DNA of 38,571 nt from an uncultured Methanosarcinales archaeon (lineage in GTDB: Archaea; Nanobdellota; Nanobdellia; Woesearchaeales; CAYVYK01): the NCBI GenBank assembly GCA_964455675.1, contig CAYVYK010000014.1, positions 1-38,571 on the forward strand, written 5' to 3'. The notes below the pieces were generated by a model. That model did not search any database. It saw only the letters and a list, made by a program, of their open reading frames with translations, and was not told the DNA's origin. The translations under genes were made by a program, and so were the position numbers. Positions 1-30,053 of the stretch are shown piece by piece (the stretch's first letter is position 1; each line of letters starts with the position of its first letter).

Positions 1-3000
1 CACCACGCTTGAGTTTTCTCCAAAGTCCGTGTCATTGTTGAAGTGCATCAGCACCTGCAGGTTTCTCGCAAGGTCTCCAAATCCCGGATCGAGTTCGCCA
101 TCGCTCGTCACCGCCCATCCGATGATTTGCGCGTTTGTCCTGTTATACCAGGAAACGTTTACCCCTCCAATGCCTTCTGTTCCATTTGTTGCGTTTACTT
201 CAACATACCATTTTCTTGTGAGTGTTGACGAAAGGAAGCTAGCGTTCTTGTACGTCGCGTTGATGAACGTGATGTTGTTGCTATTGGAAGCGTTAACGCT
301 GAATGCTTGCGAGTTGTTGATGTATTGGTCCACGAAAATATTGTGGTGACTTGTGTCAAAAGAGATACCATTTTGTACGGTGTGGTTGATTCTGTTGTTG
401 TAGAGGCGGTTCCTGCTGGCGTATATGAGCCATATGCATCCGTAATATTGTGTGGGTGATGTGCAGTTGTGGATGATATTGTTTGCGATGAGATTGTTCG
501 TGTTGCTGTATATGTAGATACCCATGGATGCGTTGTCGATACTGTTGTTTGCGATCGTTGAAAAATTTGATGACCAACTGAGTGTGATTGCTGTGCCTGA
601 TGTATCGATGATATTGTTGTTACTGATCGTTGTATTCTTGGAGTAAGTTACGGCAATTCCTTGATGTGATAAGTCATTATGGACGATGGTAGAATTTGAT
701 GAAGTTGTGAGTACGATCCCATTGCCACTATAGGCAACGCCAGTTCGTGGGATACTGAGTGTGTTATTGTAAATGCGCGTGAATTGAGACTGGCTCGCCG
801 AGATTCCTGCCGATGCCCTGACTGTATTGTTCCTGATTGTCAGGTTCTTGCCGCCTACTACCGCCACAGCGTACCCGGTGTCACTTAGCTTGTTTTGTAG
901 GACAGAGTTGTTGCGGGTATTGAAAAGATAGATATGGTATCCATAATCGGGGATTCCCGCGTAGAAAACGGACGCGTTTGCGATAATGTTGTTCTTGATG
1001 GTGCTTGTGTTTGTGCTTGGAAGGTAGAGGATGTACGCACCCGAAAGTCCATCGATGTTGATGTTCGTGATTCCCGCGAGATTCTTCATCGTGTTGCGGG
1101 TTATCGTGATATTCCTTCCGTACTCGATGATGGCGCCATATTTGATTTTGCAGGAGTCTCCTTCAAGGTCGCACGAAAAGTTACTGAAGTCATGGTTGCT
1201 GATGTTATTCCTGTCGATCGTGGTGTTCCTTCCGCTGTAGACTCTGAGTTGGTATCCATCGAGTGAGTTGTTCGAATTCATCCACCATGTGTTGTTGTAG
1301 TACAGGTTGTCCTTGCACTCGTAGTCCAGCGTTCCGTTCGCGTTCTTCGTGATGCTGTTGTTCGCGATGATGGAATAATTGCTCGCGAGGATGTATATTC
1401 CCTTCTTAAGTGTCCTGTTCACGCGGTTGTCATCAATCGTGAGGTTGTTCGTTCGTACGGCGTAGATTCCTACAGTGGTGCTTCGTGTAACGGTATTATT
1501 GATGATCTTGCTCTTGAGTGATCGGTCGATGGATATCCCGTAGCTTCCGTTCATGACGAAGTTATGGCTTACGGTTGTATTTGGGGTGATGCTAACACTT
1601 ATGGTCGAGCTGATTGCTGTCTGGTTGAGCGTGTTGTGAATGAGAGTAATACTGCGTCCATAGGACGTGGACAGTGCAGAGGTTGTATTACGTATGGTGT
1701 TATGGTCTGCCTTCGTCTGTGAGCTTTCGGCAATGAATACCCCCAAGAATCCAGCTCCGATCGTGTTATTGTATACTCTGCTGCGGTTTGATTTTGAGAG
1801 GTATATTGCGGCAATACCACCACTATCATACACCCTTATACTGTGCCCGCTGATCGTGGTATTTTTCTGGTCGCTATAGATTCCATATCCGGCAGGAGCG
1901 TAAATGGAATACCCTGCTCCTTTGAATGTAATGTTTTCCGCTTGTATTCTGAAGCAGTAGCCTGATCCAGAATAGTTGATGTTCTTCTTGAGCACGTACG
2001 TTCTGTCCGCGATGGTAAGGTTCGTGCAGTTGTACACATTCGTGATGTTGGTCGCTTTGTAGTCCGAGAATCCGGTGACGTTGAACCTGAAGTATCCGGT
2101 GGAGAAGCTGATGTTCTTGCATTCTTTGCAGTCGCTGTATCCTCCGTTCATGATCCGGTCGACGATTGCTTTGGGATAGATCCATCCGGTGCCCACCTTG
2201 AGGGTTACGTTCGCTCGCTCTGATGTAAACCCAGGATCAAGCGTGGTGTTGACGCGTGCCCGATTCGTGCTGAACTGTATCGTTTTTGAGAGGTTGCTTC
2301 CGTTGACTTTAAGGCTTGTGAGGAAGTGGATAGTTCCGAGTGCCGATGTGATCTTGAGCGTTCCGGAATCGATCCTGTATTTCACGACGCTGTTGTTGTA
2401 GATATAATAATCTGCGATGTCGCTTCCGCTGACGGTGTTGTTCGTGACGTTGTGGAAGGTGCCGCCGATCACGTGGATTCCATATGTGGAGCTGTCAGTG
2501 ATCGTGTTGTTTTTTATTCTGCAATAACTAGTGCCCTCCTTGATCAGGATGCCGGTAGCGGCCATGTCGATCGTGTTGTTTGCGATCTTCACTTTGGCTG
2601 AGCTGATGTTTATTGCGGTTCCAGCTCTGTTCATGTTGAAGATGTTTTTTGAAACGGTAATGTTTGATCCTCCTGTTGAGTAGAATCCAGACCTGGTGCT
2701 TCCGTTTGACGTGATGTTTGAGTTTCGTAGGGTGGTTCCTTCTCCTTCGTTGTAGATGGCATCCACGCTCTTGTTGAACGTGATGTTGCATCGATCGATG
2801 AGGGTATTGTAGCACAGTGATGCAATGTAGATCGCGTTTTGTGCTGTTGTCGGCGAATTGAACCTGTTCCTCGTGATATAGTTGGCGTTGCTCGTGGTGG
2901 TGATATAGATATGGGATAGTATGTTGCTAAAGAAATCATTGTTGATGATGCTTGTGCCTTTGCTCGAGGCTAAATAGACTCCGTAGTTATTGTTCTTGAT

Positions 3001-6000
3001 AGTGTTGTCCTGGATCTTGACGTACGCGGTGCTCGCAAGGTTTATTCCTTGGGTCGCTGTTGTGTCATAGATCGTGCAGTTCGTGATCGTTCCTGTCTTG
3101 AGGTTCGTGAGGTAGATGGCAGCTCCGCCTGTCCCGCCTTGGGCGAAGCAGTTTGAGATGTTGACTTGTGATGCTGATATCGATATTCCAGTGCCTGCGG
3201 CTTGCAGTATTGATACGTTCACTCCACGGATTTTTGTTCCGTTTGATGCTGATGCGACATAAATTCCTGCCGTTACTGAGTTAATTATCGTTCCTCCCTT
3301 GATCGTCGTGTTGCGCGCTGCTGAGACATAGACGCCGTACGTTCCTGCATTGATGTAGTTGTTCGATACGTTGTTTCGGTGCTCGCTTGTGCTGATATAC
3401 ACGCCGGAGTTTGCGATGCCTGTCAGGGTGTTGTTCCTGATATAGTTATCCGTTGATGATCCTGGAAAATATACCCCGTGGTACGCTGCCTGGACTTTAT
3501 TGTTGCTGAAGTTGCTCGCGTCACCATTATTCATCTCTATTCCGTATCCTCCGGTAGAGGTGCTCGTCGTGATGTCGCAGTTTTTTACCGTGATGTTTTG
3601 GACATTGAGTCCGTAGACTCCTGTATCAGTTTCTCCCGGTGCGTAGATGTACACTCCGTCGATCACGTTTCCGGAGGATGACATGTAGATTTGGTCTGCG
3701 GTGCTGTTGTACATCCTTCCTCCCTGGACGTAGTTATTGATTCCTTGCAGCAGCACGCCGTATGTGGCGAGTCGTGCCGTGTTGTTGATGAACTGGTTGT
3801 TCTTTCCGGATGTTTGGAACGCGTTCCCTGATCGGAGTATGGTGTTGTTGGTAACGACGCTGTTGTTTGATGCTGATAGTGATATTCCGTTCGTTGTTGC
3901 GTTTCGTATCGTGTTGTTGCGGATAGTATTGAGGCGGCTTATTGTGCTGAGGATGCCGGTGTGCGTTGATGCGTGGAAGCTGCTGTTCTTGATCTCGTTG
4001 TTTGACCCTCTGTAGATGTACACTCCGTACGCGCCGTGGTATGTTGTGATGTTATGGATGCGGCTGTAATTGGAGTTGTTGATGTACACTGCCCAGTTTG
4101 TGCACGATGCGCATGCTCTGTTGATCTTGCAGTTCTTGATCGTTGCGTTGTTGACATTGATGTAGACGCCTGCCTTGCCGGTATCATCTGATGTAATCCA
4201 ATGCCCGTGACAGTCGAGTGTGATGTTTGCCGCGCTGATGTTGATGCAGTGGCTCGATAGGGCGTTGTTCGTGATGTCTGCCGTCACCGTGTAGCTCGTG
4301 AGCGCTGTAGTGAGCGGCCTGCACGTGCTGACCGACGTACCTGTTTCCACCTTAATCTGTCGTACTTCTGTCTGGTTTTTGTTCCCGAACGAGTCAGCGC
4401 TGTGTCCTTGGACGTTGTATGTTTTGTCCGGGAGGTTCCTGTATGTTGCATGGTATTGATAGCGTGACGCGTTGTAGAGTGATAGTACTTCCGCAGCGCT
4501 GAGGCTTCTGTTGAATATGATGACTTCATCGATGCTTCCGTTGAAGTCATTCGTATGGTATTCGTATGTCCCCCTTCCGATAAGGAGTCGATATGTGGTT
4601 GCGGAGATGTTTCCCGTTGCGGCTCCGGCGTATTGCTGGCTGCCATTGAGATACCCGGTGAGTTGTGTTCCATTGTATGTCATGACGACGTGGCACCACT
4701 GCCCGACTGGGCATGTTCCTGTAGTCTCTGGATGGTAAGTCGTTGTTGTCGTTGTAAGGACAAGTTCTGCCTGATTTCTGATCGCTGCTCCTCCAAAGTC
4801 AATGCGATAAACCCCTTTTGATATCATGTATTGCGATGCTGTTGGCATTTTGTTGAGTTTTGCCCAGAGGGAGATTGTCATCGAGCTTCCGACGAGATCA
4901 AGCGCGTCCGTGTCGTTGATGGCAACGTAGCTGCTCGTGTTGAACGTGAATGCGTCTCCGAATTTTCCAGAGTTCGTCTGGTTCGCCCAACCTTTCTTTG
5001 TTCCGTTGTGGCGGTAGCCGCTGAGGTCCGTGGGGTTTCCGTACGCGTCAACGTCGTCCATCCTCATCCAGAGCACGACATCGTTGTTCAGTCGTGCGAA
5101 CGTATAGTGTAGCGAGGATTCCGTGGTGGAAATGTTGACGTTCAGGGTGCTCGTGGATATTCCGGTGTTGTTTCCAGGTGTCGGGGCTACAAATGAGATC
5201 TTTGGTCCTATCGTGTCCAGTCCGAACTTCATGAACACGTAGTCCGTGTAGAGTGAATGGTGGATGAGTGGCGGTGAGTGCTCGGTGAAGTATCCGCGCG
5301 CGGCAAACTCAAGGTCGTCATACCCTGTTGCGTTGAAGATAACTTCGTATTCTTCTCCTGGCTGTATGGCGAGATAGTCGTTGTCCTGCCAGATGAGTGG
5401 CCGGACGTTTCCGTCCGTGACACGTACTGGCAGATTGATCGTTCCAGCTGCGTTCAGCATGTGGAGTGATCGCGCGTTCATGAGGCGTGCAGATAATCCT
5501 TTGGTATCTCCTGTAAAGTATGTGGCGAGTGGCTCATGTTGGTAGGCAAGGAGTTGCGCAAGATTCTGCAGGGTGTTTGGCTGCATGTATGATCCCATGT
5601 CCGAGAATTCCAGTCGTGGCATCAGGTCCGTGTTTCGGGATGCTTCCCTTGTGAGGTTTTTCACGTCGTCTTCTCCAAGGATGAGCATGCTCGCGACGTC
5701 CCCTGCTTCTGTCAGCCCGATGCTCGCGAGGTCTTCACGCGCGGCATGCATGCGTGCGTTGAGCGTTTCCATGCGGACGGATAGCGGCTTTGGCGTTCCG
5801 ATGAGGATGAGGAAGTGTGTTTGCCGCTGGTTGTATGTCCATACTGTGGTATGCGGATACTCTGCGGCAAAGCTTGCGATGAGTGTGCGTAGGTCCGCGA
5901 ATGACAGTCCTCCGATCGGCACCCATGCTGCCGCGATTCCGTCCGGTGTGAGCCGTTCTTTCATGGTATGGAAGTAGTCTTGGCTGTACAAACTTGGGTT

Positions 6001-9000
6001 TCCTTTGTATTTGAGGTTCGTAACATCTGTGACGATGACATCATACTGTTTTGGCGTTGTCTGGAAATAGTGCCTCGCGTCGTCAATGATGAGGGTAAAC
6101 TTTGGATTGGAGAGCGTGTCTTTGCCTAGGTCTGGAAAGAACGCGCTTGCCCTTACAACTGCTTCCTCGATCTCGATGGCATCCACACTTACGCCGTGCG
6201 TAAGCATGCTCTGGCTCGTTCCCCCTGTTCCATATCCGACGGTTGCGACGCTCTCTGGCCGCGCGGATAGGAGGAGTGGTAGGTGCGCGAGCATTTTTGC
6301 GTCGATCACGAGTTCTTCGTCCGACCGTGCGACGGTTTGACTGTCGATGTTGAGTTTCCGCTCTGTTGTTCCGCGGTGCATGAACTCGCTCACCGTGACT
6401 GTACCCGTGAGTCCTTCCTCGTAGAAGAGGATTCTTTCATGGTCCTTGTAGTAGTGGTTGCCCGCGGTTCCAGCGATGATTCCTGCGATGATCACGCAAA
6501 GTGCAATGGCGAGTGCTCCCGTGCGTAGCATGCGTGCCGTGGACAGGAGGACGTATCCTCCTGCGGCGATGATGAGGAATATCATGAGGACTGTTGTGTT
6601 CTTGATGCCAAGGGTTGTGGTGAGCACAAATCCTGTGATGATGCTGCCCGTGATCATGCCTAGCGTGTTTGCGAGGTACGCCTTCCCGCTTTTTTGCCCT
6701 ATTGCGTCTTTCTCTTGTGCGTAGAGTTCGAGTGCGAGCGGGAACATGATCCCCATGAGTATTGCCGGGATGTATGCGAGTGCAAAACCGATGAGTGATG
6801 CGGTGATCACTCCGTCTGTTGGAAGTATTGCGCCAAGCTGCGCGTAGACCTGGAGGAGGACTGCGCTTAGGATTGCGAGCGCAAGCGCTGCCGTGCCAAA
6901 CACGAGTGCAGGTTTCTGTATCTTGCTTCGCGATAGGAGTGCACTTCCGCTCATCATGCCTAGGAGCATTCCAGCGAGGATGAGTGTGTACGAGAGTGTT
7001 GTTGTGAGGCCGTAGCTTGAGAGTGTTCGTGTCCAGAGGAGTTCAAGGCTGATGCTTGTCATTCCGGTGATGAAGAGCACACCAAGCATGTCCTTCCTCG
7101 TTCTGGTTTTTTGTTCAACCACTGTCGGTCCTGCAGCGCTTGGCATTCCTCGCGCGACGAGGAAAATGAGGATATTGATCGCGACTGCGATCCCAAGTGT
7201 TAGTGTGATGCCAAGGAACCTGATGAGGATGATGCCCGTGAGCAGCGACCCTGCGAATGCGCCAAGCGTGTTGACATAATATATTCGTGAGAACTCCCGG
7301 ACGTTTTGCCTGACAACATATTTTGTGATGATTGGGATAGTCCCTCCGATGCAGATGCATGGTATGAGAATGATTATCCCGCTGATCGCCATTCTGATGA
7401 TTGTGAGGAGTGCGAAGCTGCTCGTTGCGGCCTGTGCGTAGAATCGCTCAAACGGCCAGATGCTGATAACAAGGTACGACAGCGCTGAACTGATGCCTAT
7501 CGCAAGTTCGATGAACGCGTATGTTTTCAGGGTGTTCGGGCTTCGCTCTGTTATTTTTCCAAAGATGTAGCTGCCGAGCCCCAGGCCGAGCATGAATACT
7601 GCAATCACGGTCGCTACTGCGGCGCTGCTTGTCCCAAACTGGAGCGACAGTAGTCGTATCCACAGGAGCTGGTAGATGAGTGCTGCTCCTCCTGAGAGGA
7701 AGATGAGGTAGTGTATTCGCGGTATTGCAGCGAGCGCGTCCATCCCTTTGTGTCGAACAACGAATACGCATAGGATGATGAGTACGATGATGGCAAGGAT
7801 AATAAACTCTGTTGGGAAAGATGTTTCTTCCCTCACGGTTGCCTTGAGATAGACTTGGTCGATGTATGCTGTCTCGTTGAGCTCTTCTTTGAGCATGATT
7901 CTGATCGTTCCGTTCACGACGTCCACTGAGTCTGTGATATCAACGAATGATGTGTATTCCTGTTCTTTGCTTCCTGCTCCCGCGATGAAGTCTGAGATGA
8001 AGGAGTAAAGTCCGTCCTTGTAGGTATAGAGGAATGGTGAGTACTGGCATGCGCACTGCCGTGCTGTCCCTCGTGCGTACGTTGCGCAGTCGTTTTGCCC
8101 GTCCTGGTGGTAATAGCATGTCCCGCCGGTTGTCGCGCTTGCGTATGGTCCTGTCGCAGCTTGTCCTGAGCATCCATATGTCATATACCAGTGATTGCAT
8201 GTCGCACAATTGACAGGATCGTTCGTCCAGTCGCATGTTCCGTCCTGTACTCCACCGTGCGTGGCGCACAGGGCGGTGCACGATGACGTTGAGCTGTACC
8301 AGCAGTAGTTCGTGTTCCACCATCCCCCGCATGCCTTCTGGCTCGCGACGCGCATAGCGACTGTTTTTGTTGTTTGGTTGATGTAGTCCTGGACGTTGCT
8401 CGTTACGATGACGTTAATGGTTTGATCCGAACCTATTGGGTTGCCATACACTGATACCCATTTCCTTGCCGCGTAGCTGTAGAGGCTGATATTTGTATAG
8501 AATCCATTTGACGTTTCTCCGTACCCCTCCCACGTGATGTTGATGCTTCCTGGTGTACTGACGAGTGGATCGCGCGTGAGGTTGAAGATGAAGAGGTGCT
8601 GGTCATAATCGTACGCACCTGCTTTATAGGTGACAAAGTAGTCATTGTCGCTTTTATTGAGCTGTTTCATCGTTGTTCCGTTCACTGCGCTCCAGCCCGC
8701 CCAAGGGCTTGGATTCAGTGTTGTTGCTGCGTAGTACCCGCTCATGTTCGCGATCGTATAGTTGCTTGGGTCGACGATGTAGTCAAAGCGCAGGCTTCCT
8801 CCAAGGACGTGGAGATCGAATGTGTCTTCTTCTCCTGCGAGGTCGTTAAGATATCTCGTGTTCCTGCTATTGTTCGTTATGTTGTCAAAGCTTACGATGA
8901 CGTCAGTTCCGTTGTTCTGGTACACGTAGATGCTTGGGCTTCCGTTCATGATCCATGGATAGAGTGTGATGTCATTCACTGCCGTGAGGTTTTTCTTGAA

Positions 9001-12000
9001 TTCCACGCGCACGTAGTGTCCGGAAGGTATTGTCTCGCTCCACACATCATCAAGTGCGCTCACTTCAGGATAGATGTCTGAGACGAGTTCTCTGTTTTCG
9101 TCAAGGTGCGACGCCCTGCTGATCTCGATGATGATCTGGTATGTTTGGTTTGAGAGGTGTGGCACGACCCAGGTGATGGTGTCTCCCTTGCCGTTCAAAT
9201 CAGTGTCTGCGATCGAGAAGTCGAGCACTTCAAGGCGGTATTGTGGTTGCTCGGGTGTGCTGATGTCCTCGATGCTGCCGTAGCCGTTGGGAATGTCCAG
9301 ATTATCCGCGCTCTGTCCTTCGGTAAGAAGGTATTTGTATTCAATATCATCAATGATCCAGTAGAGCCGTGCTTGTGACTCGATGGGGAGTGCCGCGCTT
9401 ACCGTCACCTCATCGTATTCAACGTCGGAATGGACGACTACTTCCTTCTGGGTGGTGCTGACTGCTTCCTCAACAATTTCGGGTCCTGGGGTTGTGTACT
9501 CAAGTTCAACTTCTTCATAGATGCCTGGCACGAGGACGTAATTCTCTTCTGGCTCGGCGACTGCCGGATCGGACACGGCGTATCCGGTGATTCCTCCCGT
9601 GAGCCATCGCGTAATCCACTTGAGCATGCGTGTGATAATGCCTTCTCCTTCAGCGCTGTTCACGGCAAATGCTGTTATTCCTGGCGTGGTTCGCTCGGCA
9701 AGTTCTGGGTCGATCTTGGCGAGGAGTGCTTCTTTTGTTCGCAGACTACGTTCTGCCCGGACGAGCCGGTGTTTGATTTTTTTGCCGGTCTGTGCATCGC
9801 TCGAGGCAAGATCTTCCTGCGCCTGCGCGATTTCCTCTCGGAGTTCTTGGATTTTTTCCTCTATGTCCGCGGCTCGCAGAGTTCGTTGTGGCTTGTTGCG
9901 GTTTTCTTCTCTTTGCTGGAGGAATCTGGCAAGCCGTTGCGTTGCGAGTATTTCGTCGTTGACTGCCGCGGGTGTAGCCTCAGGTGTTGGTTCTGCCATT
10001 TCCTCATTGTTATCCTCCGGTGTCTGCTCAATCGTGGATTCCGTTGGTGCTTTAGTCTCTTCTTCATCGAGCTGTTCTTCCATCTCGATGATGGTGACAT
10101 CTGCGGTGTCAAGGACGGCTATCTCCTCTGGTGGTGGTACATTCGTTTCAGACGGGACATCTGGAATCTCCGTGGGAATGTTGATTGGGTTCTCTGTTGG
10201 CGATGGGTTTGCAAGTGGAGTCTCGGTTGGGCTTTCAGTAGATGTTGGAGTGGCCGTGATCTCAGGTATTATCGGCTCGTCGAGTAAGCTATCAGCAAGT
10301 TTGATCTCGCGTCCTTCTTGTTCGAGGTATGCTTCTGTGATGGGTTCTGAGTTTGCCCGCACCCGGATGTCATACGCGCTCTTGGGTATGGGTATTCTGG
10401 TCGTGTCTGCCGCGTTTGCGACCCGTATCCTCCTAACCCACGTCGTTGGTTTCCCCACTTGGATTTGAGTGGTGTTCGTGAGGAGGACGGTGACTGTTTC
10501 GCTGAGGTTTTCGGTAATATTGCTCGTGATATTAGACGTGATATTCGTCGTGATATTGGTAGTAATGTTTGTAGTAATGTTTATGGTGATGTTCGTAAGG
10601 TTGAGGGAAAGGTTGCTCGTGTAATTCAGGCTAAGATTACCCGTAATGTTCGCGGTGATATTGCTCGTAATATTTGTGGTTATATTGCCCGTAATATTCA
10701 TGCTGATATTGTTGGTAATATTGGCTGTTATGTTTGATGTGATATTCGTCGTAGTGTTCGTATCTGTCGTGACGTTTGATGTGATGTTCATGGATATGTT
10801 GGTGGTGATATCGCTCGTGATGTTGCTCGTTACGTTTAATGTCGTATTCGTGATGTTTGTGCTATCGTTCGTATCAGGGATTTCTGGGAGTACAACGAGT
10901 GTTGCGTCCGTTGAATTCGTTGCGAGTTCGTCCGATGCATAGAACGTGATGCTCGCGTTTCCAAAAAAGCCTGCGCTAGTTATGGTAACGATACTGTTGA
11001 GTATTCCAACATTCATCCCTTCAGGTTGCGTGACAAGGTATGTGATATTGTCCCCATCCTCATCGTATGCGTACGAGGCAAGGTCCACAATGGTTTCACC
11101 GCTGATCGTGATCGGTGGAACAGGCAGCCATTTTGGTGCGCGGTTGCCTTGGGCGAGTGTGTAACTGATACCTGTGATCGTGATGCTGCTTCCCTCTTCA
11201 GTTTCGACGACGAGTGAGTATGGTCCTGCGGTGTGTACATGACAGCTCTCTGCGCAGTGGCTGGCAAATTCCAGTTCTTCCGGCGCTGCTTCATCGGCGG
11301 TATCATCCGGTTCTGGTGTTTCTTCAGGTGTTGGTTGGATTGTCGCTTCTGGTGTTTCGGCGGGTACTGGTGTCTCTGCTGGTGTTTCTTCCGGTGTTGG
11401 TTCTGGTGTCTCTTCGATCGATTCTTCTGGTTCTTCGAGGGTGTCGTCGACCTCTTCATCCGGTGTTGGTTCTGGTGTTTCTTCAGGTGATTCCTCAAGG
11501 GTGTCGTCAGTTTCATCTGTTGGGGTTTCTTCTTGTGTTGGTTCTGGTGTTTCTTCGATCCATTCTTCTGGTTCTTCATCTGTATCACTGGTTTCTTCCG
11601 GTGTCTCTTCGGGTGTTGGCGTCGCGCCTTTCTTTGTCTTTTTTGGTTTGACGGAGAGGAGTTGTACCGTGACGTCCGTGCTGTTCGTGCCGTCCTTGTC
11701 GCTTGCGTAGATCGTGATCGTTCGGTTGCCGCTCATGTTGTTTGGATTGCGTAGGCGCAGTCTGTTATAGAGGACGTCTACGTCAAGATCTTCTGCGCTC
11801 GTCGCAACGTACGTAATTTCGTCATGGTCTCGGTCGCGCCAGTACTTGGAGAGATTGATGGTCTTGTCTACGCCGTATTTTACTTTGATGAGGGGGAATT
11901 TCCTGAATCTTGGTGGTCGTGGTGGTTTGCTGTGGACGGCTAGCCCTGTGAGTCCTTCGATTCCTTCCTCTTCTGTTAGCATGCTTGTGTCAAGGATGAG

Positions 12001-12252
12001 TGTTTGTCCTTCCGCGTGCTTGAGGTACACACGTGCTTCTCCGCTGTATGTTCCGCTAATGCGCATGCTTGCAAGTTCTCCGCTGATAGCGAGCGCTTGC
12101 TCTCCTGCAGAGTCAAACGTGTACGTGACGTCCTGCGTATGGATTTCTTCGCTGATCGCGAGTCCCACGAGTTCTGGGCCGCTGTGGTAGAGTACCGCGA
12201 TGAACATTCCGACGAGGAGTCCGAGGATAAGGTAGCTCGGGAGTCTACGCAT
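1..12252 (-). CDS. Giant multidomain cell-surface/membrane protein (>=4084 aa, 3' end beyond the window): signal anchor, acidic linkers, NxT array, internal MFS-like/spermidine-synthase-like module, LamG and right-handed beta-helix (PbH1/NosD-like) domains
   Basis: Manual translation from ATG 12252 (MRRLPSYLILGLLVGMFIAVLY...) stays in one frame to base 1 (...LQVLMHFNNDTDFGENSSVV). The ORF track lists no minus-strand ORF in this frame across 1-12252, as expected for a frame with no stop inside the window. A purine-rich RBS-like stretch precedes the ATG, which overlaps the upstream gene's stop (ATGCGTAG). Confidence 0.93.
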   Translation of the reverse strand, partial: MRRLPSYLILGLLVGMFIAVLYHSGPELVGLAISEEIHTQDVTYTFDSAGEQALAISGELASMRISGTYSGEARVYLKHAEGQTLILDTSMLTEEEGIEGLTGLAVHSKPPRPPRFRKFPLIKVKYGVDKTINLSKYWRDRDHDEITYVATSAEDLDVDVLYNRLRLRNPNNMSGNRTITIYASDKDGTNSTDVTVQLLSVKPKKTKKGATPTPEETPEETSDTDEEPEEWIEETPEPTQEETPTDETDDTLEESPEETPEPTPDEEVDDTLEEPEESIEETPEPTPEETPAETPVPAETPEATIQPTPEETPEPDDTADEAAPEELEFASHCAESCHVHTAGPYSLVVETEEGSSITITGISYTLAQGNRAPKWLPVPPITISGETIVDLASYAYDEDGDNITYLVTQPEGMNVGILNSIVTITSAGFFGNASITFYASDELATNSTDATLVVLPEIPDTNDSTNITNTTLNVTSNITSDITTNISMNITSNVTTDTNTTTNITSNITANITNNISMNITGNITTNITSNITANITGNLSLNYTSNLSLNLTNITINITTNITTNITTNITSNITSNITENLSETVTVLLTNTTQIQVGKPTTWVRRIRVANAADTTRIPIPKSAYDIRVRANSEPITEAYLEQEGREIKLADSLLDEPIIPEITATPTSTESPTETPLANPSPTENPINIPTEIPDVPSETNVPPPEEIAVLDTADVTIIEMEEQLDEEETKAPTESTIEQTPEDNNEEMAEPTPEATPAAVNDEILATQRLARFLQQREENRNKPQRTLRAADIEEKIQELREEIAQAQEDLASSDAQTGKKIKHRLVRAERSLRTKEALLAKIDPELAERTTPGITAFAVNSAEGEGIITRMLKWITRWLTGGITGYAVSDPAVAEPEENYVLVPGIYEEVELEYTTPGPEIVEEAVSTTQKEVVVHSDVEYDEVTVSAALPIESQARLYWIIDDIEYKYLLTEGQSADNLDIPNGYGSIEDISTPEQPQYRLEVLDFSIADTDLNGKGDTITWVVPHLSNQTYQIIIEISRASHLDENRELVSDIYPEVSALDDVWSETIPSGHYVRVEFKKNLTAVNDITLYPWIMNGSPSIYVYQNNGTDVIVSFDNITNNSRNTRYLNDLAGEEDTFDLHVLGGSLRFDYIVDPSNYTIANMSGYYAATTLNPSPWAGWSAVNGTTMKQLNKSDNDYFVTYKAGAYDYDQHLFIFNLTRDPLVSTPGSINITWEGYGETSNGFYTNISLYSYAARKWVSVYGNPIGSDQTINVIVTSNVQDYINQTTKTVAMRVASQKACGGWWNTNYCWYSSTSSCTALCATHGGVQDGTCDWTNDPVNCATCNHWYMTYGCSGQAATGPYASATTGGTCYYHQDGQNDCATYARGTARQCACQYSPFLYTYKDGLYSFISDFIAGAGSKEQEYTSFVDITDSVDVVNGTIRIMLKEELNETAYIDQVYLKATVREETSFPTEFIILAIIVLIILCVFVVRHKGMDALAAIPRIHYLIFLSGGAALIYQLLWIRLLSLQFGTSSAAVATVIAVFMLGLGLGSYIFGKITERSPNTLKTYAFIELAIGISSALSYLVISIWPFERFYAQAATSSFALLTIIRMAISGIIILIPCICIGGTIPIITKYVVRQNVREFSRIYYVNTLGAFAGSLLTGIILIRFLGITLTLGIAVAINILIFLVARGMPSAAGPTVVEQKTRTRKDMLGVLFITGMTSISLELLWTRTLSSYGLTTTLSYTLILAGMLLGMMSGSALLSRSKIQKPALVFGTAALALAILSAVLLQVYAQLGAILPTDGVITASLIGFALAYIPAILMGIMFPLALELYAQEKDAIGQKSGKAYLANTLGMITGSIITGFVLTTTLGIKNTTVLMIFLIIAAGGYVLLSTARMLRTGALAIALCVIIAGIIAGTAGNHYYKDHERILFYEEGLTGTVTVSEFMHRGTTERKLNIDSQTVARSDEELVIDAKMLAHLPLLLSARPESVATVGYGTGGTSQSMLTHGVSVDAIEIEEAVVRASAFFPDLGKDTLSNPKFTLIIDDARHYFQTTPKQYDVIVTDVTNLKYKGNPSLYSQDYFHTMKERLTPDGIAAAWVPIGGLSFADLRTLIASFAAEYPHTTVWTYNQRQTHFLILIGTPKPLSVRMETLNARMHAAREDLASIGLTEAGDVASMLILGEDDVKNLTREASRNTDLMPRLEFSDMGSYMQPNTLQNLAQLLAYQHEPLATYFTGDTKGLSARLMNARSLHMLNAAGTINLPVRVTDGNVRPLIWQDNDYLAIQPGEEYEVIFNATGYDDLEFAARGYFTEHSPPLIHHSLYTDYVFMKFGLDTIGPKISFVAPTPGNNTGISTSTLNVNISTTESSLHYTFARLNNDVVLWMRMDDVDAYGNPTDLSGYRHNGTKKGWANQTNSGKFGDAFTFNTSSYVAINDTDALDLVGSSMTISLWAKLNKMPTASQYMISKGVYRIDFGGAAIRNQAELVLTTTTTTYHPETTGTCPVGQWCHVVMTYNGTQLTGYLNGSQQYAGAATGNISATTYRLLIGRGTYEYHTNDFNGSIDEVIIFNRSLSAAEVLSLYNASRYQYHATYRNLPDKTYNVQGHSADSFGNKNQTEVRQIKVETGTSVSTCRPLTTALTSYTVTADITNNALSSHCINISAANITLDCHGHWITSDDTGKAGVYINVNNATIKNCKINRACASCTNWAVYINNSNYSRIHNITTYHGAYGVYIYRGSNNEIKNSSFHASTHTGILSTISRLNTIRNNTIRNATTNGISLSASNNSVVTNNTILRSGNAFQTSGKNNQFINNTARLATYGVLLQGINNYVQGGRMYNSTADQIYMSSSGNVIDGVYIYAPGETDTGVYGLNVQNITVKNCDITTSTSTGGYGIEMNNGDASNFSNNKVQAAYHGVYFPGSSTDNYIRNNTLTGIANSGVYISTSEHRNNVSNNYINAGTYGVYVSAARNTTIKGGTIINSVTAGIYVASASNGTKIRGVNVSILQAAGTGISISASQVNISNCFAQGGTGGAAIYLTNLKTGTITNCTIYDTTATQGINLASTAYVKIQDNTIKNNNYGVYLASSKGTSIINNDFFSNILSHIYITTTSNANYITRNRFNSPTTAQNAIYIASLCYNTLIDRCNITFNKSVDAIYNEGEGTTLRNSNITSNGSTRSGFYSTGGSNITVSKNIFNMNRAGTAINISSAKVKIANNTIDMAATGILIKEGTSYCRIKNNTITDSSTYGIHVIGGTFHNVTNNTVSGSDIADYYIYNNSVVKYRIDSGTLKITSALGTIHFLTSLKVNGSNLSKTIQFSTNRARVNTTLDPGFTSERANVTLKVGTGWIYPKAIVDRIMNGGYSDCKECKNISFSTGYFRFNVTGFSDYKATNITNVYNCTNLTIADRTYVLKKNINYSGSGYCFRIQAENITFKGAGYSIYAPAGYGIYSDQKNTTISGHSIRVYDSGGIAAIYLSKSNRSRVYNNTIGAGFLGVFIAESSQTKADHNTIRNTTSALSTSYGRSITLIHNTLNQTAISSTISVSITPNTTVSHNFVMNGSYGISIDRSLKSKIINNTVTRSTTVGIYAVRTNNLTIDDNRVNRTLKKGIYILASNYSIIANNSITKNANGTLDYECKDNLYYNNTWWMNSNNSLDGYQLRVYSGRNTTIDRNNISNHDFSNFSCDLEGDSCKIKYGAIIEYGRNITITRNTMKNLAGITNINIDGLSGAYILYLPSTNTSTIKNNIIANASVFYAGIPDYGYHIYLFNTRNNSVLQNKLSDTGYAVAVVGGKNLTIRNNTVRASAGISASQSQFTRIYNNTLSIPRTGVAYSGNGIVLTTSSNSTIVHNDLSHQGIAVTYSKNTTISNNNIIDTSGTAITLSWSSNFSTIANNSIDNASMGIYIYSNTNNLIANNIIHNCTSPTQYYGCIWLIYASRNRLYNNRINHTVQNGISFDTSHHNIFVDQYINNSQAFSVNASNSNNITFINATYKNASFLSSTLTRKWYVEVNATNGTEGIGGVNVSWYNRTNAQIIGWAVTSDGELDPGFGDLARNLQVLMHFNNDTDFGENSSVV
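250..4320 (-). other. Two right-handed parallel beta-helix regions of the giant protein (approx. 4320-2400 and 2040-250), separated by a small domain ending FNVTGFSDY
   Basis: Recurrent Asn-ladder units such as YGVYI..SNNEIKN, GISLSASNSVVTNNTI and YGVYLASSKGTSIINN. Each helix opens with a typical cap (HCINISAANITLDCHG; YCFRIQAENITFKG). Confidence 0.85.
4470..5090 (-). other. LamG/concanavalin-A-like jellyroll domain of the giant protein; a second one appears to begin at 60-1
   Basis: LWMRMDD...DLSGYRHNGT...GKFGDAFTF...MTISLWAK...WCHVVMTYNG...YLNG...FNGSIDEVIIFNRSLSAAEV. Confidence 0.9.
5600..7809 (-). other. Internal polytopic membrane (MFS-like) plus spermidine-synthase-fold (class I SAM-binding) module of the giant protein
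   Basis: About 14 hydrophobic segments with family-typical repeats (FLSGGAALIYQLLWIRLL / FITGMTSISLELLWTRTL; LYVNTLGAFAGS / AYLANTLGMITGS). These are followed by LAHLPLLL, VGYGTGGT, AIEIEEAVV, IDDARHYF, YDVIVTD, LYSQDYF and LTPDGIAAAW. Confidence 0.9.
10501..10870 (-). repeat. Coding ~12-bp degenerate tandem repeat giving an (x-N-I-T)n array of N-glycosylation sequons
   Basis: Translates as ...TNITSNITANITNNISMNITGNITTNITSNITANITGNLSLNYTSNLSLNLTNITINITTNITTNITTNITSNITSNITENLS; about 30 N-x-S/T sequons in about 123 aa. Confidence 0.9.
11280..11625 (-). repeat. Coding low-complexity Glu/Thr/Pro-rich repeat linker (EETPEPTP); a second acidic linker lies at approx. 9960-10290
   Basis: Repeated + strand words ggttctggtgtttcttc; translation EETPEPTQEETP...EETPEPTPDEE...EETPEPTPEETP. 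Confidence 0.85.
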
Positions 12253-12736
12253 GCGTTTCCCCCCGTTTCTCGCTCGCTCGGTGCCACACTGTCCAGATTG
12301 TTCGGTCATCTCTGTGGAGTATTTTTCCGATTTTGGTGAACGTGTATCCTTGGCGCTCTTTGAGATCATAGACGATGGATTCCAGGATTGTGAGTCGTTC
12401 ATCTGTGAATGCTTCCATGGGGATGCTGTGTGCAAAGCTGATGTCAGAAAACTGTTCGGGTTGTTTTCGCGCAGCATTGCGGTACGTGATCCAGATGGTG
12501 CTCGTGTCGCGGTGCAGCAACCCCACAACTTCCTTGTTGCTCTTCTCTCGATTCTCGCGTAGATACTTCACGATTGCTTCAAAGCAGCTGAGTTTTCTAA
12601 TGAAGATGGAGCATGGCACGGCGTCCCTGCTTTTTCCCTCGAGGATATGGGTGATATCAGAATCCGTATAGTGGTAGACGTCCTTCAGGTGATGGATGAG
12701 CCGTTCGAGCTGTTTCGCCGTGCCTTCCTCTGCCAA
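12245..12736 (-). CDS. Duplicated helix-turn-helix putative transcriptional regulator, translationally coupled to the giant gene
   Basis: Two ~50-aa internal repeats: LSCFEAIVKYLRE...KEVVGLLHRDTSTIWITYRNA and LTILESIVYDLKE...TKIGKILHRDDRTIWTVWHRA. TTG start. The stop overlaps the giant gene's ATG by 8 bp. Confidence 0.8.
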   Translation of the reverse strand: MAEEGTAKQLERLIHHLKDVYHYTDSDITHILEGKSRDAVPCSIFIRKLSCFEAIVKYLRENREKSNKEVVGLLHRDTSTIWITYRNAARKQPEQFSDISFAHSIPMEAFTDERLTILESIVYDLKERQGYTFTKIGKILHRDDRTIWTVWHRASEKRGETHA

Positions 12737-15176: not shown

Positions 15177-15466
15177 CGCAAAGCCATCATTCAAGCGAAG
15201 CTTGAAGATGGCGTCCGTGACCGGGCGACCAACGGGAGCCCGACTGTCCTACGATGATATGATGAAAGTTCCTAATTCTGTAGTGAATAGTCCATCAGAA
15301 GCCCGACCGTCNNNNNNNNNNNNNNNNNNNNNNNNNNNNNNNNNNNNNNNNNNNNNNNNNNNNNNNNNNNNNNNNNNNNNNNNNNNNNNNNNNNNNNNNN
15401 NNNNNNNNNNNATATGATGAAAGTTCCTAATTCTGTAGTGAATAGTCCATCAGAAGCCCGACCGTC
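15177..15466 (+). repeat. Structured repeat element copy 1: 79-nt hairpin head plus ~63-bp tandem unit, interrupted by a 100-N scaffold gap
   Basis: Head aligns ungapped with 35718-35796 (66/79 identical). GCCCGACYGTC recurs at 15238 and 15301. An identical 55-mer flanks both sides of the gap. Confidence 0.8.
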
Positions 15467-19477: not shown

Positions 19478-22400
19478 ATGCGTACGATCTATTTCGTAGT
19501 GCTCGCATCGTTCGTACTAAGTGCGTGTATGACCGGTAACACGATTCGTGATGTGAGTATTTTTCATCGGCCTTTGGCAAGGCAACCTTTGGATAATGAT
19601 GCCTTTGAGACTGATGTCCTGGAGGATGATGCGCTCATTGGATATTGTTCTGATAGTGATGGCGAGAATGTTCATACCGCTGGTTTTGTTACGGATGAGG
19701 GTTCTGGATATACTGGTGGTCCTGACGTATGCCTAGATGAGGTCGTGCTGAAGGAAATGATATGCACCACGAATCATGCGGATTCGTTTACGTTTTCATG
19801 TTCTGATCTCATGGAGTATTGTGACGCTGGCCGATGTGTGCAGTGTTTAAATGACGTGCACTGTGGAAGTGGCGCGCGCTGTGTCAACAATGAGTGCGTG
19901 CACGTTCTGCCAATGACGACGGCGTCGCGTACGGAGTGTGTCGCGCCATGCGCCGTTTTTTTTGACACGATTGATGTCGCGGAGGGTGCGTGGAATCCTG
20001 CAGGTCCGGGACAGAATCCTGCGTGGTTTTCAGGTGTTGTTCAGGGTGAGCATTTCCAGGATTTGTTGTATGAGTGGGATTTTGGTGATCCGTCCTCGGG
20101 CGATTGGATTTATGGTGTTGAGGGCAGATCCAAGAATCATGCGGCGGGTCCGCTTGTGGCGCATGTATACGAGGTGCCCGGTATGTACACTGTCCTGCTC
20201 GACGTGAGGGATGCGTGGGGGGTGCATCACTATTTCCAGGATCTTGAGGTTCTTCCGTATCCCGGGAGTGGTTGGGAGCATACGTACTATGTTGCGGAGG
20301 ATGGAAACGATGCAAATGATGGTTCTTTGGAGCATCCTTGGCGTACTGTTGACCGGGCGTTTTCCATGGCTCTTCCAAGTACGAGGCTCCTCTTCAAGCG
20401 TGGTGATGAGTTTGCGGTAAACCAGGTTATTCGGACAACTGTTGACGGTCCTGTGCATGTTGACGCATACGGTGAGGGTAAGAAGCCCCATTTCATTGCA
20501 GGTCCTCTGTTTCATGAGAACGTGACGTATGACAGCATGTTCTATGTTCGGCATGATGATTGGTCGTTCATGAACCTTAATATCACCGGCGCCTGGAATG
20601 GTCTTGATTTGCTTGCTGGCGGCCCCATCATTAAGCCCATTGATTGGGCTAGGAATACCTTGATGTTTAAGGTGGATGCGGGCTGGTCTCGAAATGGTCT
20701 TGAGTCCTCCTTCAGTTCTTACACAACGATTTATGAGTGCACGAATGGTCCTACCGAGAGTGTAGGCTCGACGGTCTTTAATTCCCGTCATTCTGCGATT
20801 CTTGGCTCTCACTTCCATGATGCGAAAAGTTCCCATAATTTTTACACGCTATCGACGTTCAAGAATGTGTACTCGAATAATCTCATCGAGCGCGCTGGAG
20901 GTGGTCGTCACAACATTCGAATTTGCGGCGCTGACGCGGGGAATAACTTCATTGCAAAGTACAACGTGATCGCGGATAATATGATCAACGCTGGGACTTG
21001 GCTCTCACTCTATATATCCCCGAATGTGAATAACCTCCTGCAGGTCATGGAGGACACTCTGATCGAGCGCAATGTTGTCTATAATACTTCGCAGTACGCT
21101 CTCCTGATTGGTCCCGGAGTGGATGGTATCACGGTGCGAAACAACCTGATGGATGGTAGTGTATGGATGAAGAAGCGTGATGATGACATCCATCCGCTGA
21201 CGTTGGATCAGGAGGATGTTCTGATAGAGCATAATACGCTCCTCAAGACGAATCTTGAGGGTGTTTCTGTAATTGAGTTATTGAATCCTCTTGCAAAACG
21301 TATTTCCATCCGGAATAATATTCTGCACTCCGTGTTCCCTCACGGTGCTGCGCTTGTATATCATATTGCTGACTTTGAACTGCTAAATGAGGTAACAACA
21401 GACCATAATGTTCTGCATGTTCCGCATTCAGAGGATGTTGTCCGCTTCGCGTATGGTGAGTATAGTATGAACATGATGCAGTGGCAGGCGCTCGGACAGG
21501 ATTCCGATTCATTCGAAGCTGATCCATCGTATCTGCAGCCTGATTATGAGCATGTTCCTGACGGTAATTTCCGTCTGTTGTTCGGCTCCCCCGCGATTGA
21601 TGCTGGGTTGTCATCCCTCGATTACGATCTTGACAATTTCCCCCGTCCCTTTGACGGCGATGGTGATGGTATTCCACGCCCGGATAGTGGTGCCTTTGAG
21701 TATCATGGCTGTTCAATGGATGCCGCTTGCCCTAGCGATGTCGCATGTGTTGACTGGTCGTGTTTGGATTCCCGATGTGTGAGAACCGAGCTTGCCGGGG
21801 TTTGTGATGATGGTATTGACTGCACAATGGATGATACCTGTGTAGGTGGAGTATGCGTCGGTACTCCGTTTGATGGCGCTTGCGCGGATGTTCCGGTTTG
21901 CGCGGAAAAAACGTGTGGCGCGATGGGTTGCACGTATGGTTCTTGTGATTCCTCGCTCGTCTTCGCTTGGTCTGCGGATGATGATCCGTCTGACGGTTCT
22001 GTTCCTGATCTCTCCCCATTCCATAATGATGCGAGTTGTGTTTCCTGTCCCGCGCGCATCGTTGATGGTGATCGTACTGTGTATGCGTTCGATGGTGCGG
22101 GTTCGTTTTTGTCCGTTCCCGATAATCCCTCGCTTGACATGACGGATGCTGTTTCCATTGTGCTTTGGGCGAAAACTGCGCAGAGTTATACTGACCCGTA
22201 TCCTAGTCTCGTCGCCAAGGGTGATGCTGGGTATTCGCTTAGGTTCTTTGGTTTGGCTCCTGCTCCAAGCGGTGCTGAATTGTACACCTGGGCGGGCGGC
22301 GTGAACACTCGGAGTGGGCTTTTTGCTCCTGTTGGGGAATGGAACTTTCTTGCAGTTGTCTTTCATCAGGGTCTTGTTGATTTCTACGTGAATGACGAGT

Positions 22401-22567
22401 CCGTCCTGAGTCGGCCTGGGGGTGGGAGCATTTCCGCAAATAACATCCCCCTTACGATTGCAAGGAGCACGGGCGAGCGTGAGTATGACGGTTTGATCGA
22501 TGACTTGTACGTGTTTAATCGCGCTCTTTCGCCTGCGGAGATCGAAGGTCTTCGCGCCGTGCAGTAA
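19478..22567 (+). CDS. Secreted/lipoprotein-like surface protein: Cys-rich repeats, PKD domain, right-handed beta-helix, C-terminal LamG domain
   Basis: Signal ending VLSAC; CSDSDG repeat; YEWDFGD...AHVYEVPGMYTV (PKD); YYVAEDGNDANDGSLEHPWRT beta-helix start; SPAIDAG...PDSGAFEY; CDDGIDCTMDDTC; YDGLIDDLYVFNRALSPAEI (LamG). Confidence 0.9.
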   Translation: MRTIYFVVLASFVLSACMTGNTIRDVSIFHRPLARQPLDNDAFETDVLEDDALIGYCSDSDGENVHTAGFVTDEGSGYTGGPDVCLDEVVLKEMICTTNHADSFTFSCSDLMEYCDAGRCVQCLNDVHCGSGARCVNNECVHVLPMTTASRTECVAPCAVFFDTIDVAEGAWNPAGPGQNPAWFSGVVQGEHFQDLLYEWDFGDPSSGDWIYGVEGRSKNHAAGPLVAHVYEVPGMYTVLLDVRDAWGVHHYFQDLEVLPYPGSGWEHTYYVAEDGNDANDGSLEHPWRTVDRAFSMALPSTRLLFKRGDEFAVNQVIRTTVDGPVHVDAYGEGKKPHFIAGPLFHENVTYDSMFYVRHDDWSFMNLNITGAWNGLDLLAGGPIIKPIDWARNTLMFKVDAGWSRNGLESSFSSYTTIYECTNGPTESVGSTVFNSRHSAILGSHFHDAKSSHNFYTLSTFKNVYSNNLIERAGGGRHNIRICGADAGNNFIAKYNVIADNMINAGTWLSLYISPNVNNLLQVMEDTLIERNVVYNTSQYALLIGPGVDGITVRNNLMDGSVWMKKRDDDIHPLTLDQEDVLIEHNTLLKTNLEGVSVIELLNPLAKRISIRNNILHSVFPHGAALVYHIADFELLNEVTTDHNVLHVPHSEDVVRFAYGEYSMNMMQWQALGQDSDSFEADPSYLQPDYEHVPDGNFRLLFGSPAIDAGLSSLDYDLDNFPRPFDGDGDGIPRPDSGAFEYHGCSMDAACPSDVACVDWSCLDSRCVRTELAGVCDDGIDCTMDDTCVGGVCVGTPFDGACADVPVCAEKTCGAMGCTYGSCDSSLVFAWSADDDPSDGSVPDLSPFHNDASCVSCPARIVDGDRTVYAFDGAGSFLSVPDNPSLDMTDAVSIVLWAKTAQSYTDPYPSLVAKGDAGYSLRFFGLAPAPSGAELYTWAGGVNTRSGLFAPVGEWNFLAVVFHQGLVDFYVNDESVLSRPGGGSISANNIPLTIARSTGEREYDGLIDDLYVFNRALSPAEIEGLRAVQ

Positions 22568-29968: not shown

Positions 29969-30053
29969 AGAGTGAAAAAGATATTAATACTATGAATTCC
30001 AAAATACGATAAAACTCGATTATGACGATCATATTATGCTTGAGGTGAACAAA

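Follow-up and report, generated by a model that had tools for sequence, protein, structure and literature searches.

Can a single archaeal gene hold a complete membrane transporter-enzyme protein in the middle of a giant extracellular adhesin and, if so, how did the two come together and which way does the enzyme face? The question is raised by the window analysed here, a stretch of 38,571 nucleotides (nt) that forms the first 38,571 bases of contig C14 (GenBank CAYVYK010000014.1) in the 1.72-Mb, 25-contig, 99%-complete genome (G000) of an uncultured DPANN archaeon. An earlier note on this DNA had described, on the minus strand, a surface protein of more than 4,000 amino acids (aa) with a unit in its middle that resembles a major facilitator superfamily (MFS) transporter followed by a domain of the spermidine synthase (SpeE) fold. 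We propose, with a probability of roughly 0.7, that the frame is a genuine gene, encoding a two-armed surface protein about 7,000 residues long, that an ancestral secreted adhesin received in frame a complete MFS/SpeE gene together with one extra transmembrane helix (TM0), and that the module now serves as a central anchor with its enzyme domain turned outward. The ancestral adhesin would have consisted of a signal peptide, an arm rich in N-glycosylation sequons, small beta domains, and arrays of LamG and beta-helix domains.

The minus-strand frame is free of stops from nt 12528 to nt 1 of the window (4,176 codons, open at the contig end) and, as the earlier note had it, joins the surface arm, the membrane and SpeE-fold unit and the LamG and beta-helix domains with no scaffold gap; both N-runs of the window (15312-15411 and 35830-35929) fall outside it. 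Translation probably starts at Met93 (nt 12252), at the head of a stretch that is first basic and then hydrophobic, like a signal peptide; this gives a giant open reading frame (ORF) at 1..12252 (-). The long frame is therefore real as had been said, but it does not end near 4,100 aa and very probably runs on into contig C18 to a total of about 6,958 aa, judging from the contig ends. Over their first 55 nt C14 and C18 are exact reverse complements of each other, this 55-mer is unique in the genome, and the two contigs join in frame with a 5'-open frame at C18:2-8677. The last residues encoded by the window and the first of C18 together make a normal LamG_3 domain start, the part in the window (1..66, -) being cut by the contig end and continuing at G000:C18:56-8677. 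Translation through the adjoining contig, a step that the earlier note had proposed, finds the frame still open over three further LamG domains and nine further beta-helix stretches, with no hydrophobic segment, up to a TAA stop at C18:8678-8680. Joined, the two parts make a frame of 7,050 codons, which from Met93 encodes 6,958 aa.

An assembly or binning artefact, in which a bacterial gene had been stitched into an archaeal contig, would agree with the bacterial affinity of the module's nearest relatives and with a contig that ends in repeats. The chance of this is practically negligible. The junctions given earlier, 7830 and 5460, lie within 20 nt of the insertion borders set below (7812 and 5446). 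Both are in frame and both are bridged by Logan contigs assembled separately from two public metagenome runs, X1 and X2: those of run X2 span 485-7514 and 7514-8253, those of run X1 4623-7512 and 7488-8129. Neither joints, indels nor loose ends are reported at the module borders in these contigs, and the frame passes both junctions with neither a stop nor a frameshift. A binning or scaffolding chimera is thereby excluded, although a single study produced both runs and X1 is possibly the source sample, so that this is not independent replication. In addition, there is no N-run inside the frame, the composition of the insert is similar to that of its flanks, and the best matches of the module share no more than 43-46% identity with it, so it does not derive from a co-assembled known bacterium. 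The genes neighbouring the giant ORF are archaeal and the host genome is small. Within the insert the two runs differ at two positions, one synonymous and one an Arg-to-Lys change.

A patch just ahead of the insert differs more. At window positions 8046-8223 (residues ~1435-1494, in the Cys-rich part of the N arm) the X2 contig departs from the window at 27 positions in 178 nt, including single-nucleotide indels that cancel out (an insertion at 8177, a deletion at 8182), and the flanking kilobases are nearly identical. The patch looks like a strain-variable region adjoining the insertion site. A diversity-generating retroelement was considered as its cause and rejected, since a template-like repeat occurs nowhere in the genome and the changes are not adenine-biased.

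How, then, did the parts come to share a frame? They had been described as joined, which is correct as far as the single frame goes, yet they are not merely joined: the module and TM0 sit as an insertion between adjacent small domains. A query with residues 1290-1600 found P0271, a protein of 2,107 aa with RCC1 repeats, a Fib_succ_major domain and no hydrophobic segment. Residues 1462-1567 of the giant protein match P0271 1581-1691 and residues 2370-2434 match P0271 1698-1761, so that the two flanks are six residues apart there. When 150 genomes of the same order were searched for giant homologues with or without the module, none with it was found, and one module-free frame, G134:C6 (5,319 aa, sequon-rich, only an N-terminal helix), contained both flanks in one uninterrupted match at 42% identity; in the window's own genome each flank gives a match of its own, with 2,406 nt between them. 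From pairwise alignments to G134 the borders fall at Pro1572/Thr1573 and Ala2361/Gly2362, which places the whole inserted segment at 5446..7812 (-), that is residues 1573-2361, 789 aa or 2,367 nt. A colinear 2,567-aa paralog on contig C8 of the same genome lacks residues 1259-2437 and is free of the module. The alternative that three neighbouring genes had lost their stops was rejected in favour of insertion, as the flanks are contiguous in both P0271 and G134.

The insert itself looks like 24 new codons, for TM0 and a basic tail, followed by a whole gene from start codon to last sense codon. It reads as a whole gene from Met1597 because the spacing of that residue to helix 1 is about that of the start Met in stand-alone proteins. 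Another protein, P0273, has the first flanking segment and lacks the second, which makes a linker between two small domains a likelier insertion site than a loop within one domain; the flanking segments are thus more likely to be two adjacent small domains than a single one. A two-chain fold prediction of these domains gave a median of 0.31 against a mark of 0.32.

The module is readily recognized. NCBIfam NF037959 ('fused MFS/spermidine synthase') matches with 95.4 bits against a cut-off of 40, and with 68.6 bits in a six-frame search of the genome. Residues 1605-2341 align end to end, without large gaps and at 43-46% identity, with residues 24-784 of stand-alone proteins of 808-810 aa. Of the 102 positions on which at least 22 of 24 homologues agree the module keeps 95, where stand-alone members range from 0.69 to 1.00. 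On these alignments the embedded copy is a complete, non-degenerate member of the family, and the earlier description of a complete MFS-like and SpeE-fold unit that otherwise occurs alone is borne out; the length of stand-alone NF037959 members (about 770-1,160 aa) does not hold here, with the module embedded in a frame of more than 4,000 aa.

The predicted structure agrees. A model of residues 1560-2420 (predicted local distance difference test, pLDDT, 81.4; predicted TM-score, pTM, 0.83) has TM0, 13 helices and then an alpha/beta domain. TM0 has low pLDDT, because the homologues lack that helix, and the linkers at both module borders are of low confidence or disordered. The '~14' membrane segments counted earlier are indeed a polytopic domain, but by hydropathy the count is one plus 13. 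TM0 covers residues 1573-1592 with a four-residue basic tail (7741..7812, -; placed by hydropathy, with borders from the alignments). It is followed by the MFS-fold domain, residues 1597-2024, with 12 helices (6+6) and an exiting 13th, counted from the probable ancestral Met1597 (6457..7740, -), and by the SpeE-fold domain with its C-terminal helical subdomain, residues 2025-2361, which carries the GxGxG loop, E2119, D2150 and D2168 (5446..6456, -). Folded alone, the transmembrane domain reached a pLDDT of 86.8; its best 50 Foldseek matches in the Protein Data Bank (PDB) are all MFS-type transporters (probability 1.00, target TM-scores mostly 0.5-0.72), among them 6zgs, OxlT 8hpj, NorA and VMAT2. 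For the SpeE part of the model the best PDB matches are 1uir, 3anx and 2o06 (E ~1e-11, target TM-score 0.70-0.75). Pfam Spermine_synth matches residues 2077-2199 with 57 bits against a cut-off of 22.9; among the 25 aligned family members it is found in all and MFS_1 in 12. We note that the same genome has a second, stand-alone MFS_SpdSyn-type gene at G000:C7:76808-78067 (+) (488-aa frame, 163 bits) and a fragment-like match of 210 aa at G000:C6:59065-59595 (+), both about 23% identical to the inserted module.

Retention of Met1597 bears on a further possibility, that the gene has several products, with internal initiation at this codon, or proteolysis, freeing an MFS/SpeE-like protein and pieces of adhesin. 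The ancestral Met is kept in frame at a spacing to helix 1 near the family consensus, and the low-confidence or disordered border linkers would suit cleavage. However, no stop lies between the parts, so that ribosomes starting at nt 12252 must read through, an appropriate ribosome-binding spacing ahead of Met1597 is not obvious, and the C arm, itself lacking a signal peptide, would have no way to the outside except within the fusion. We give this possibility little weight.

The arms on either side of the module are those of a secreted adhesin, with a signal peptide, LamG_3, Beta_helix and homology to secreted paralogs. By hydropathy there is one helix at residues 96-114, another at 1573-1591 and a set of 13 between 1605 and 2024; past 2030 there are none, C18 included. 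Residues 93-117 form a signal peptide or signal anchor (12178..12252, -; hydropathy peak 96-114), basic at the start and then hydrophobic, and the secreted C8 paralog has an N-terminus homologous to residues 95-202. The N arm, residues 118-1572 (1,455 aa; 7813..12177, -), is sequon-rich with acidic Pro/Thr/Glu linkers, includes a Cys-rich part at ~1400-1494 and has a small domain, 1497-1567, directly ahead of the insert; no Pfam family matched it. Pfam scans at E <= 1 of five N-arm segments, the post-insert linker and the region between the beta-helices, seven segments in all, returned only chance-level matches. Past the insert come a small domain at residues 2362-2434, the partner of 1497-1567 in the homologues, and an Ig-like segment that leads to the LamG domain (4969..5445, -). 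Pfam Laminin_G_3 follows at residues 2530-2681 with 87.7 bits (4486..4941, -), and then two right-handed beta-helix arrays, ~2745-3380 and ~3490-4120, with borders set by eye (67..4461, -), in which Beta_helix matches nine stretches with 267 bits and NosD scores 205 bits. The profile search of each segment that had been suggested thus recovered NF037959, Spermine_synth, Laminin_G_3 and Beta_helix, and the return to extracellular domains past the module stands as it had been described.

If both arms are secreted, on which side of the membrane is the SpeE-fold domain? Four lines of evidence (charge bias, the MFS fold, the secreted flanking arms and the adjacency of the flanks in homologues) lead to the prediction that it lies outside the cell. 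With the module N-terminus taken as inside, Lys and Arg were counted in the seven inner loops plus the N-tail and in the outer loops plus the 15 residues past helix 13: inner counts are 13-24 and outer counts 3-7 in 25 of 25 aligned sequences, and 21 against 5 in the window. MFS bundles have both termini in the cytoplasm, and since the bundle ends inside, helix 13 must exit the membrane. Sequons occur at 3.7 per 100 aa in the N arm, 2.9 in the linker, 4.7 in the LamG part and 5.9 in the beta-helix part, against a median of 0.3 and a 99th percentile of 1.3 in 427 non-membrane ORFs of the genome, and homologous LamG parts are found in paralogs with signal peptides. Finally, since homologues have the two flanks next to each other, the insert should start and finish on the side to which the N arm is exported.

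From this we propose the following course. The N arm would be exported, by a Sec-type route, behind its signal peptide, and TM0 would act as a stop-transfer segment that returns the exported chain to the cytoplasm, as a module with its N-terminus inside requires. The 12-helix MFS bundle would then begin and finish in the cytoplasm, and helix 13 would be an internal signal anchor driving the export of some 5,000 residues, namely the SpeE-fold domain and a C arm of about 4,700 aa. There being no other membrane segment, the polytopic module would be the sole anchor, at about one quarter of the chain length. The central anchoring put forward in the earlier note is thus consistent with the predicted topology, in which both arms are outside.

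The reverse arrangement of the C-terminal part, with the SpeE-fold domain and the LamG/beta-helix arm both in the cytoplasm, conflicts with the positive-inside bias in all 25 sequences, with an MFS bundle whose ends are both inside and whose 13th helix must exit, with 4.7-5.9 sequons per 100 aa in a C arm whose homologous domains occur in signal-peptide paralogs, and with the adjacency of the insert flanks, by which both ends emerge on the N-arm side. It would account for the cytoplasm-like sequon density of the SpeE-fold part (0.31 per 100 aa), and all characterised SpeE enzymes of which we know are cytoplasmic and use decarboxylated S-adenosylmethionine (dcSAM). We consider it very improbable. 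The low sequon density can also be explained by bacterial ancestry or by selection on the enzyme surface.

What might an outward SpeE-fold domain do? Its residues were compared by alignment to Thermus SpeE, with conservation assessed across 25 aligned sequences. In the glycine loop G2098 and G2102 are present in 25 of 25 and G2100 in 24 of 25; E2119 and D2150 are invariant (25/25 each), and the position of D2168 is Asp in 22, Glu in two and Gln in one. From their SpeE counterparts we take E2119 to be the ribose-binding acid, D2150 the adenine-binding residue and D2168 the first catalytic acid. In SpeE the acid of the GGG(D/E)G motif binds the amine of dcSAM, and the second Asp of D-x-x-D forms the diamine site. 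Both are replaced: the T2101 position is Thr or Ser in 24/25, where Thermus SpeE has the Glu of GGGEG, and the N2171 position is Asn in 20/25 and His in 3/25, where SpeE has that second Asp. The aromatic/His/Glu stretch after the conserved Asp-Glu of SpeE enzymes also differs in the module family. The SpeE equivalog profiles missed their cut-offs (TIGR00417, 68.1 against 249.55 bits; PRK00811, 76.4 against 260; PRK03612, 111.3 against 472), the last of them covering residues 1805-2199, that is the second MFS half, helix 13 and the SpeE part. Generic methyltransferase models touched three to five of the 25 members. AdoMet (S-adenosylmethionine, SAM) decarboxylase PF02675 was not found in the 99%-complete genome, its control being positive in 7 of 14 genomes; PF01536 gave no match either, but its control matched in no genome. 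On this evidence the module domain is not a spermidine synthase, although most probably it has kept the ability to bind an adenosyl ligand. Two MetK genes of bacterial type are present in the genome (G000:C2:1048-1464 and G000:C3:60203-60643), and the archaeal-type AdoMet synthase PF01941 was not found in it.

We suggest that the SpeE-fold domain may be an extracytoplasmic enzyme, or a binder, of a SAM-type ligand, paired with its own MFS permease, which would either export the donor for a transferase or import a ligand that the SpeE-fold domain has captured. The fusion would put this transporter-enzyme unit at the base of the adhesin, the arms of which probably contact another, partner cell. 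We know of no pool of SAM or dcSAM outside cells, so the catalytic version requires an export step for a SAM-type donor. Taken to its full extent the proposal is an adhesin with its own chemistry, in which the permease exports a SAM-type donor and the outward transferase alkylates the partner's envelope or the protein's own glycans, or in which the pair imports an adenosyl or polyamine metabolite of the partner, and in which the whole bacterial family would be extracytoplasmic and transporter-fed. We offer this tentatively and regard it as more doubtful than probable.

Stand-alone relatives of the module are numerous. A word-indexed search of proteins below 2,296 aa gave 192 matches among 8,000 scored candidates; the 120 of these that were listed are 405-1,081 aa long and include one named 'fused MFS/spermidine synthase [Patescibacteria group bacterium]'. 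Applied to proteins of 2,296-7,308 aa, the same search had 1,575 candidates, none of them a match at E <= 0.001. Scanning one genome per prokaryotic species produced at least 602 pattern matches and at least 581 confirmed relatives. The best 80 of the latter are almost all bacterial, from Gammaproteobacteria (Woeseiaceae, Steroidobacteraceae, Thioalkalivibrio, Lentisalinibacter), Patescibacteria, Planctomycetota and Acidobacteriota, with one record labelled 'archaeon' at 34% identity. Near-complete matches at 51 loci were examined, with 29 partial or contig-end loci left out, and the fused form was absent from all 51, where the surrounding open frames are 381-1,162 aa. Residues 2025-2700 (SpeE part, linker and LamG) were also run exhaustively by HMMER against 1.84 billion representatives, and the best 150 proteins were followed up: of the 148 that were re-scanned, 43 had the module (<=1,081 aa), 100 exceeded 1,200 aa and had LamG only, and none had both, and the two that remained are 810-aa module proteins. 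Among 40 genomes of the same order, one per family, no close match was seen, and nine gave weak ones at 22-30% identity in frames of 291-1,003 aa; the fused form was found neither in these 40 nor in the 150 same-order genomes. A metagenome scan for the junction with residues 2280-2540 gave nine loci with the Ig/LamG part only and none across the junction, in a collection from which the window's own genome was possibly absent. In the ESM-Atlas the nearest clusters are without exception bacterial, of 748-847 aa. No search returned another protein with both the module and adhesin domains, in keeping with the earlier note, which knew of no described protein of this kind. Literature searches, in which subscription journals were largely unsearched, gave no paper on a module within an adhesin or on fused MFS/spermidine synthase, and the portion of PMC11107197 available to us has nothing on membrane-bound forms.

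In a quick maximum-likelihood tree of 50 rows, made up of the module together with 13 database proteins and 36 translations from the loci, the module stands on a long branch within a clade of 26 gammaproteobacterial and Patescibacteria rows (100% support), its position within the clade being unresolved, and the 'archaeon' sequence is sister to the clade. The simplest reading of these sequences is that the module was acquired from bacteria and then inserted.

Several points weigh against the two-armed adhesin with an outward module. Its full length depends on a C14-C18 join that is a 55-mer overlap at a repeat-rich contig end, with no spanning read, and its junctions on runs that share a study, one of them possibly the source sample. 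The transmembrane domain of the window has no Pfam MFS_1 match at E <= 0.01, the SpeE-fold part has 0.31 sequons per 100 aa as in cytoplasmic proteins and would also fit a location inside, and the lack of a known external SAM or dcSAM pool has been mentioned above. Moreover, the fused form has been found in one organism only, so that a young, neutral or even deleterious accident has to be considered, in which the DNA is real and the module is at most a membrane anchor, or the gene is decaying. With this would agree a partner context that is not shared with relatives and the codon-usage distance of the insert, which at 0.162 is about the genome's 95th percentile of 0.160 and beyond the 0.143 of the arms. 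We think it unlikely, if still worth weighing, for some 7,050 codons stay open, 95 of the 102 positions conserved in the family are intact in the module, a share inside the spread of stand-alone proteins, and the only differences between X1 and X2 in the insert are the synonymous one and the Arg-to-Lys one. The GC content at third codon positions of the insert (0.61) lies between those of the arms (0.56 and 0.63) and within about one standard deviation of the genome mean (0.548 +/- 0.067), which suggests that the insertion was not very recent. Lastly, an extra helix that restores an outside-outside topology is what a tolerated and selected insertion would need.

Around the module homologues in bacteria, 38 of 108 nearest-neighbour ORFs at 17 loci were scanned. 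MtrC/MtrF-like decahaem outer-surface cytochromes adjoin the homologue in four of the 17 (L015, L019, L031 and L038, from Gammaproteobacteria and Geopsychrobacteraceae), TPR proteins are near it in two, one of which also has a PgaA-type barrel, and an LTD-domain neighbour occurs in one; neighbours in seven are metabolic or unassigned. Three Phycisphaerae loci (L046, L053 and L061) have directly upstream, within ~8 kb, a conserved co-directional set of large secreted proteins, made up of an unassigned protein of 1,300-1,600 aa, a Golvesin_C+fn3 protein of ~1,000 aa and an FG-GAP protein of ~590 aa. In the 'archaeon' record a 2,100-aa LamG/beta-helix gene (L057:15145-21447, +) lies 2.7 kb downstream on the same strand. 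These neighbours hint at a link with envelope and surface proteins rather than at a conserved operon.

Other features of the window and genome were recorded. Upstream of the giant gene, an ORF of 163 aa with weak similarity to HTH_23 (12245..12736, -) overlaps its start by 8 nt at the 3' end. The window also encodes two secreted-type proteins, one of 1,029 aa with PKD, beta-helix and LamG domains (19478-22567, +) and one of 996 aa with CARDB (30036-33026, +), and two adjacent ORFs, 36093-37112 (-) and 37096-38571 (-), that each end in a PEP-utilizers mobile domain and may be a duplicated or split PEP (phosphoenolpyruvate)-utilising enzyme. Of the 44 frames of at least 1,000 codons in the 1.7-Mb genome, within which many contig ends fall, the largest is G000:C13:1924-36186 (-), an 11,421-codon open frame with no N-glycosylation sequon at all. 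Three long frames, G000:C13:44520-48248 (-), G000:C2:182669-187996 (+) and G000:C3:24998-28000 (-), have a large non-membrane part with 5-11 hydrophobic segments and could be further combinations of surface domains with a polytopic membrane domain.

If our reading is correct, the giant protein is a clean case from nature in which an entire polytopic membrane protein has been set, in frame, within an extracellular one, a single helix having been added to satisfy topology; domain insertions of such size and kind are, to our knowledge, rarely documented. Both flanks are plainly secreted, and the fusion would therefore offer a separate indication of how a large, uncharacterised family of bacterial proteins is oriented. 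As a natural topology reporter it would indicate that the SpeE-like domain of NF037959 proteins faces the periplasm or the outside, and what these proteins do would become testable in cultured carriers such as Lentisalinibacter orientalis or Thioalkalivibrio sp. XN8. On the fuller and more doubtful proposal given above, the family would be an undescribed class of periplasmic group transferases. For DPANN biology it is a candidate for a single molecule that couples attachment with transport or surface chemistry.

Comparison with known systems sets out what is familiar here and what is not. Classical SpeE (Thermus thermophilus 1uir/3anx and human 2o06) shares with the module domain the fold, the glycine loop, the ribose acid, the adenine Asp and the first catalytic Asp, whereas the module has Thr/Ser for the acid of GGG(D/E)G and Asn for the second Asp, and is predicted to lie outside the membrane. 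NF037959 proteins share the 12+1 helices, the SpeE-fold domain, the helical C-terminal subdomain and the pocket residues; the relatives examined are stand-alone, some of the more distant ones with added C-terminal TPR repeats, whereas the insert is nested in an archaeal adhesin of ~7,000 aa and has an extra helix ahead of it. Another membrane-linked form, described in the available part of PMC11237479, is a SpeE-like domain fused to a seven-transmembrane (7TM) transporter-like domain in PspA operons, for which the substrate was left open and aminopropylation of other substrates suggested. That 7TM-SpeE type resembles the module in having a membrane transporter-like domain and then a SpeE-like domain, and differs in having seven helices against 13 and another operon context; that part of the account does not report it inside a surface protein. 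LamG-like proteins are 'generally abundant in DPANN', with a role in host interaction proposed (PMC5498576, as far as its available text goes). The giant LamG/beta-helix/PKD surface proteins of DPANN have, like the protein described here, a signal peptide, LamG_3, right-handed beta-helix arrays and dense sequons. The host genome has many giant surface paralogs, including colinear ones free of the module; its giant paralogs have an N-terminal signal with no anchor or a single C-terminal helix, and none has a central polytopic module. Both components are thus of known kinds, the NF037959 family and the DPANN giant adhesins, and what is new is the nesting of one in the other, the added helix and the implication of an extracytoplasmic SpeE domain.

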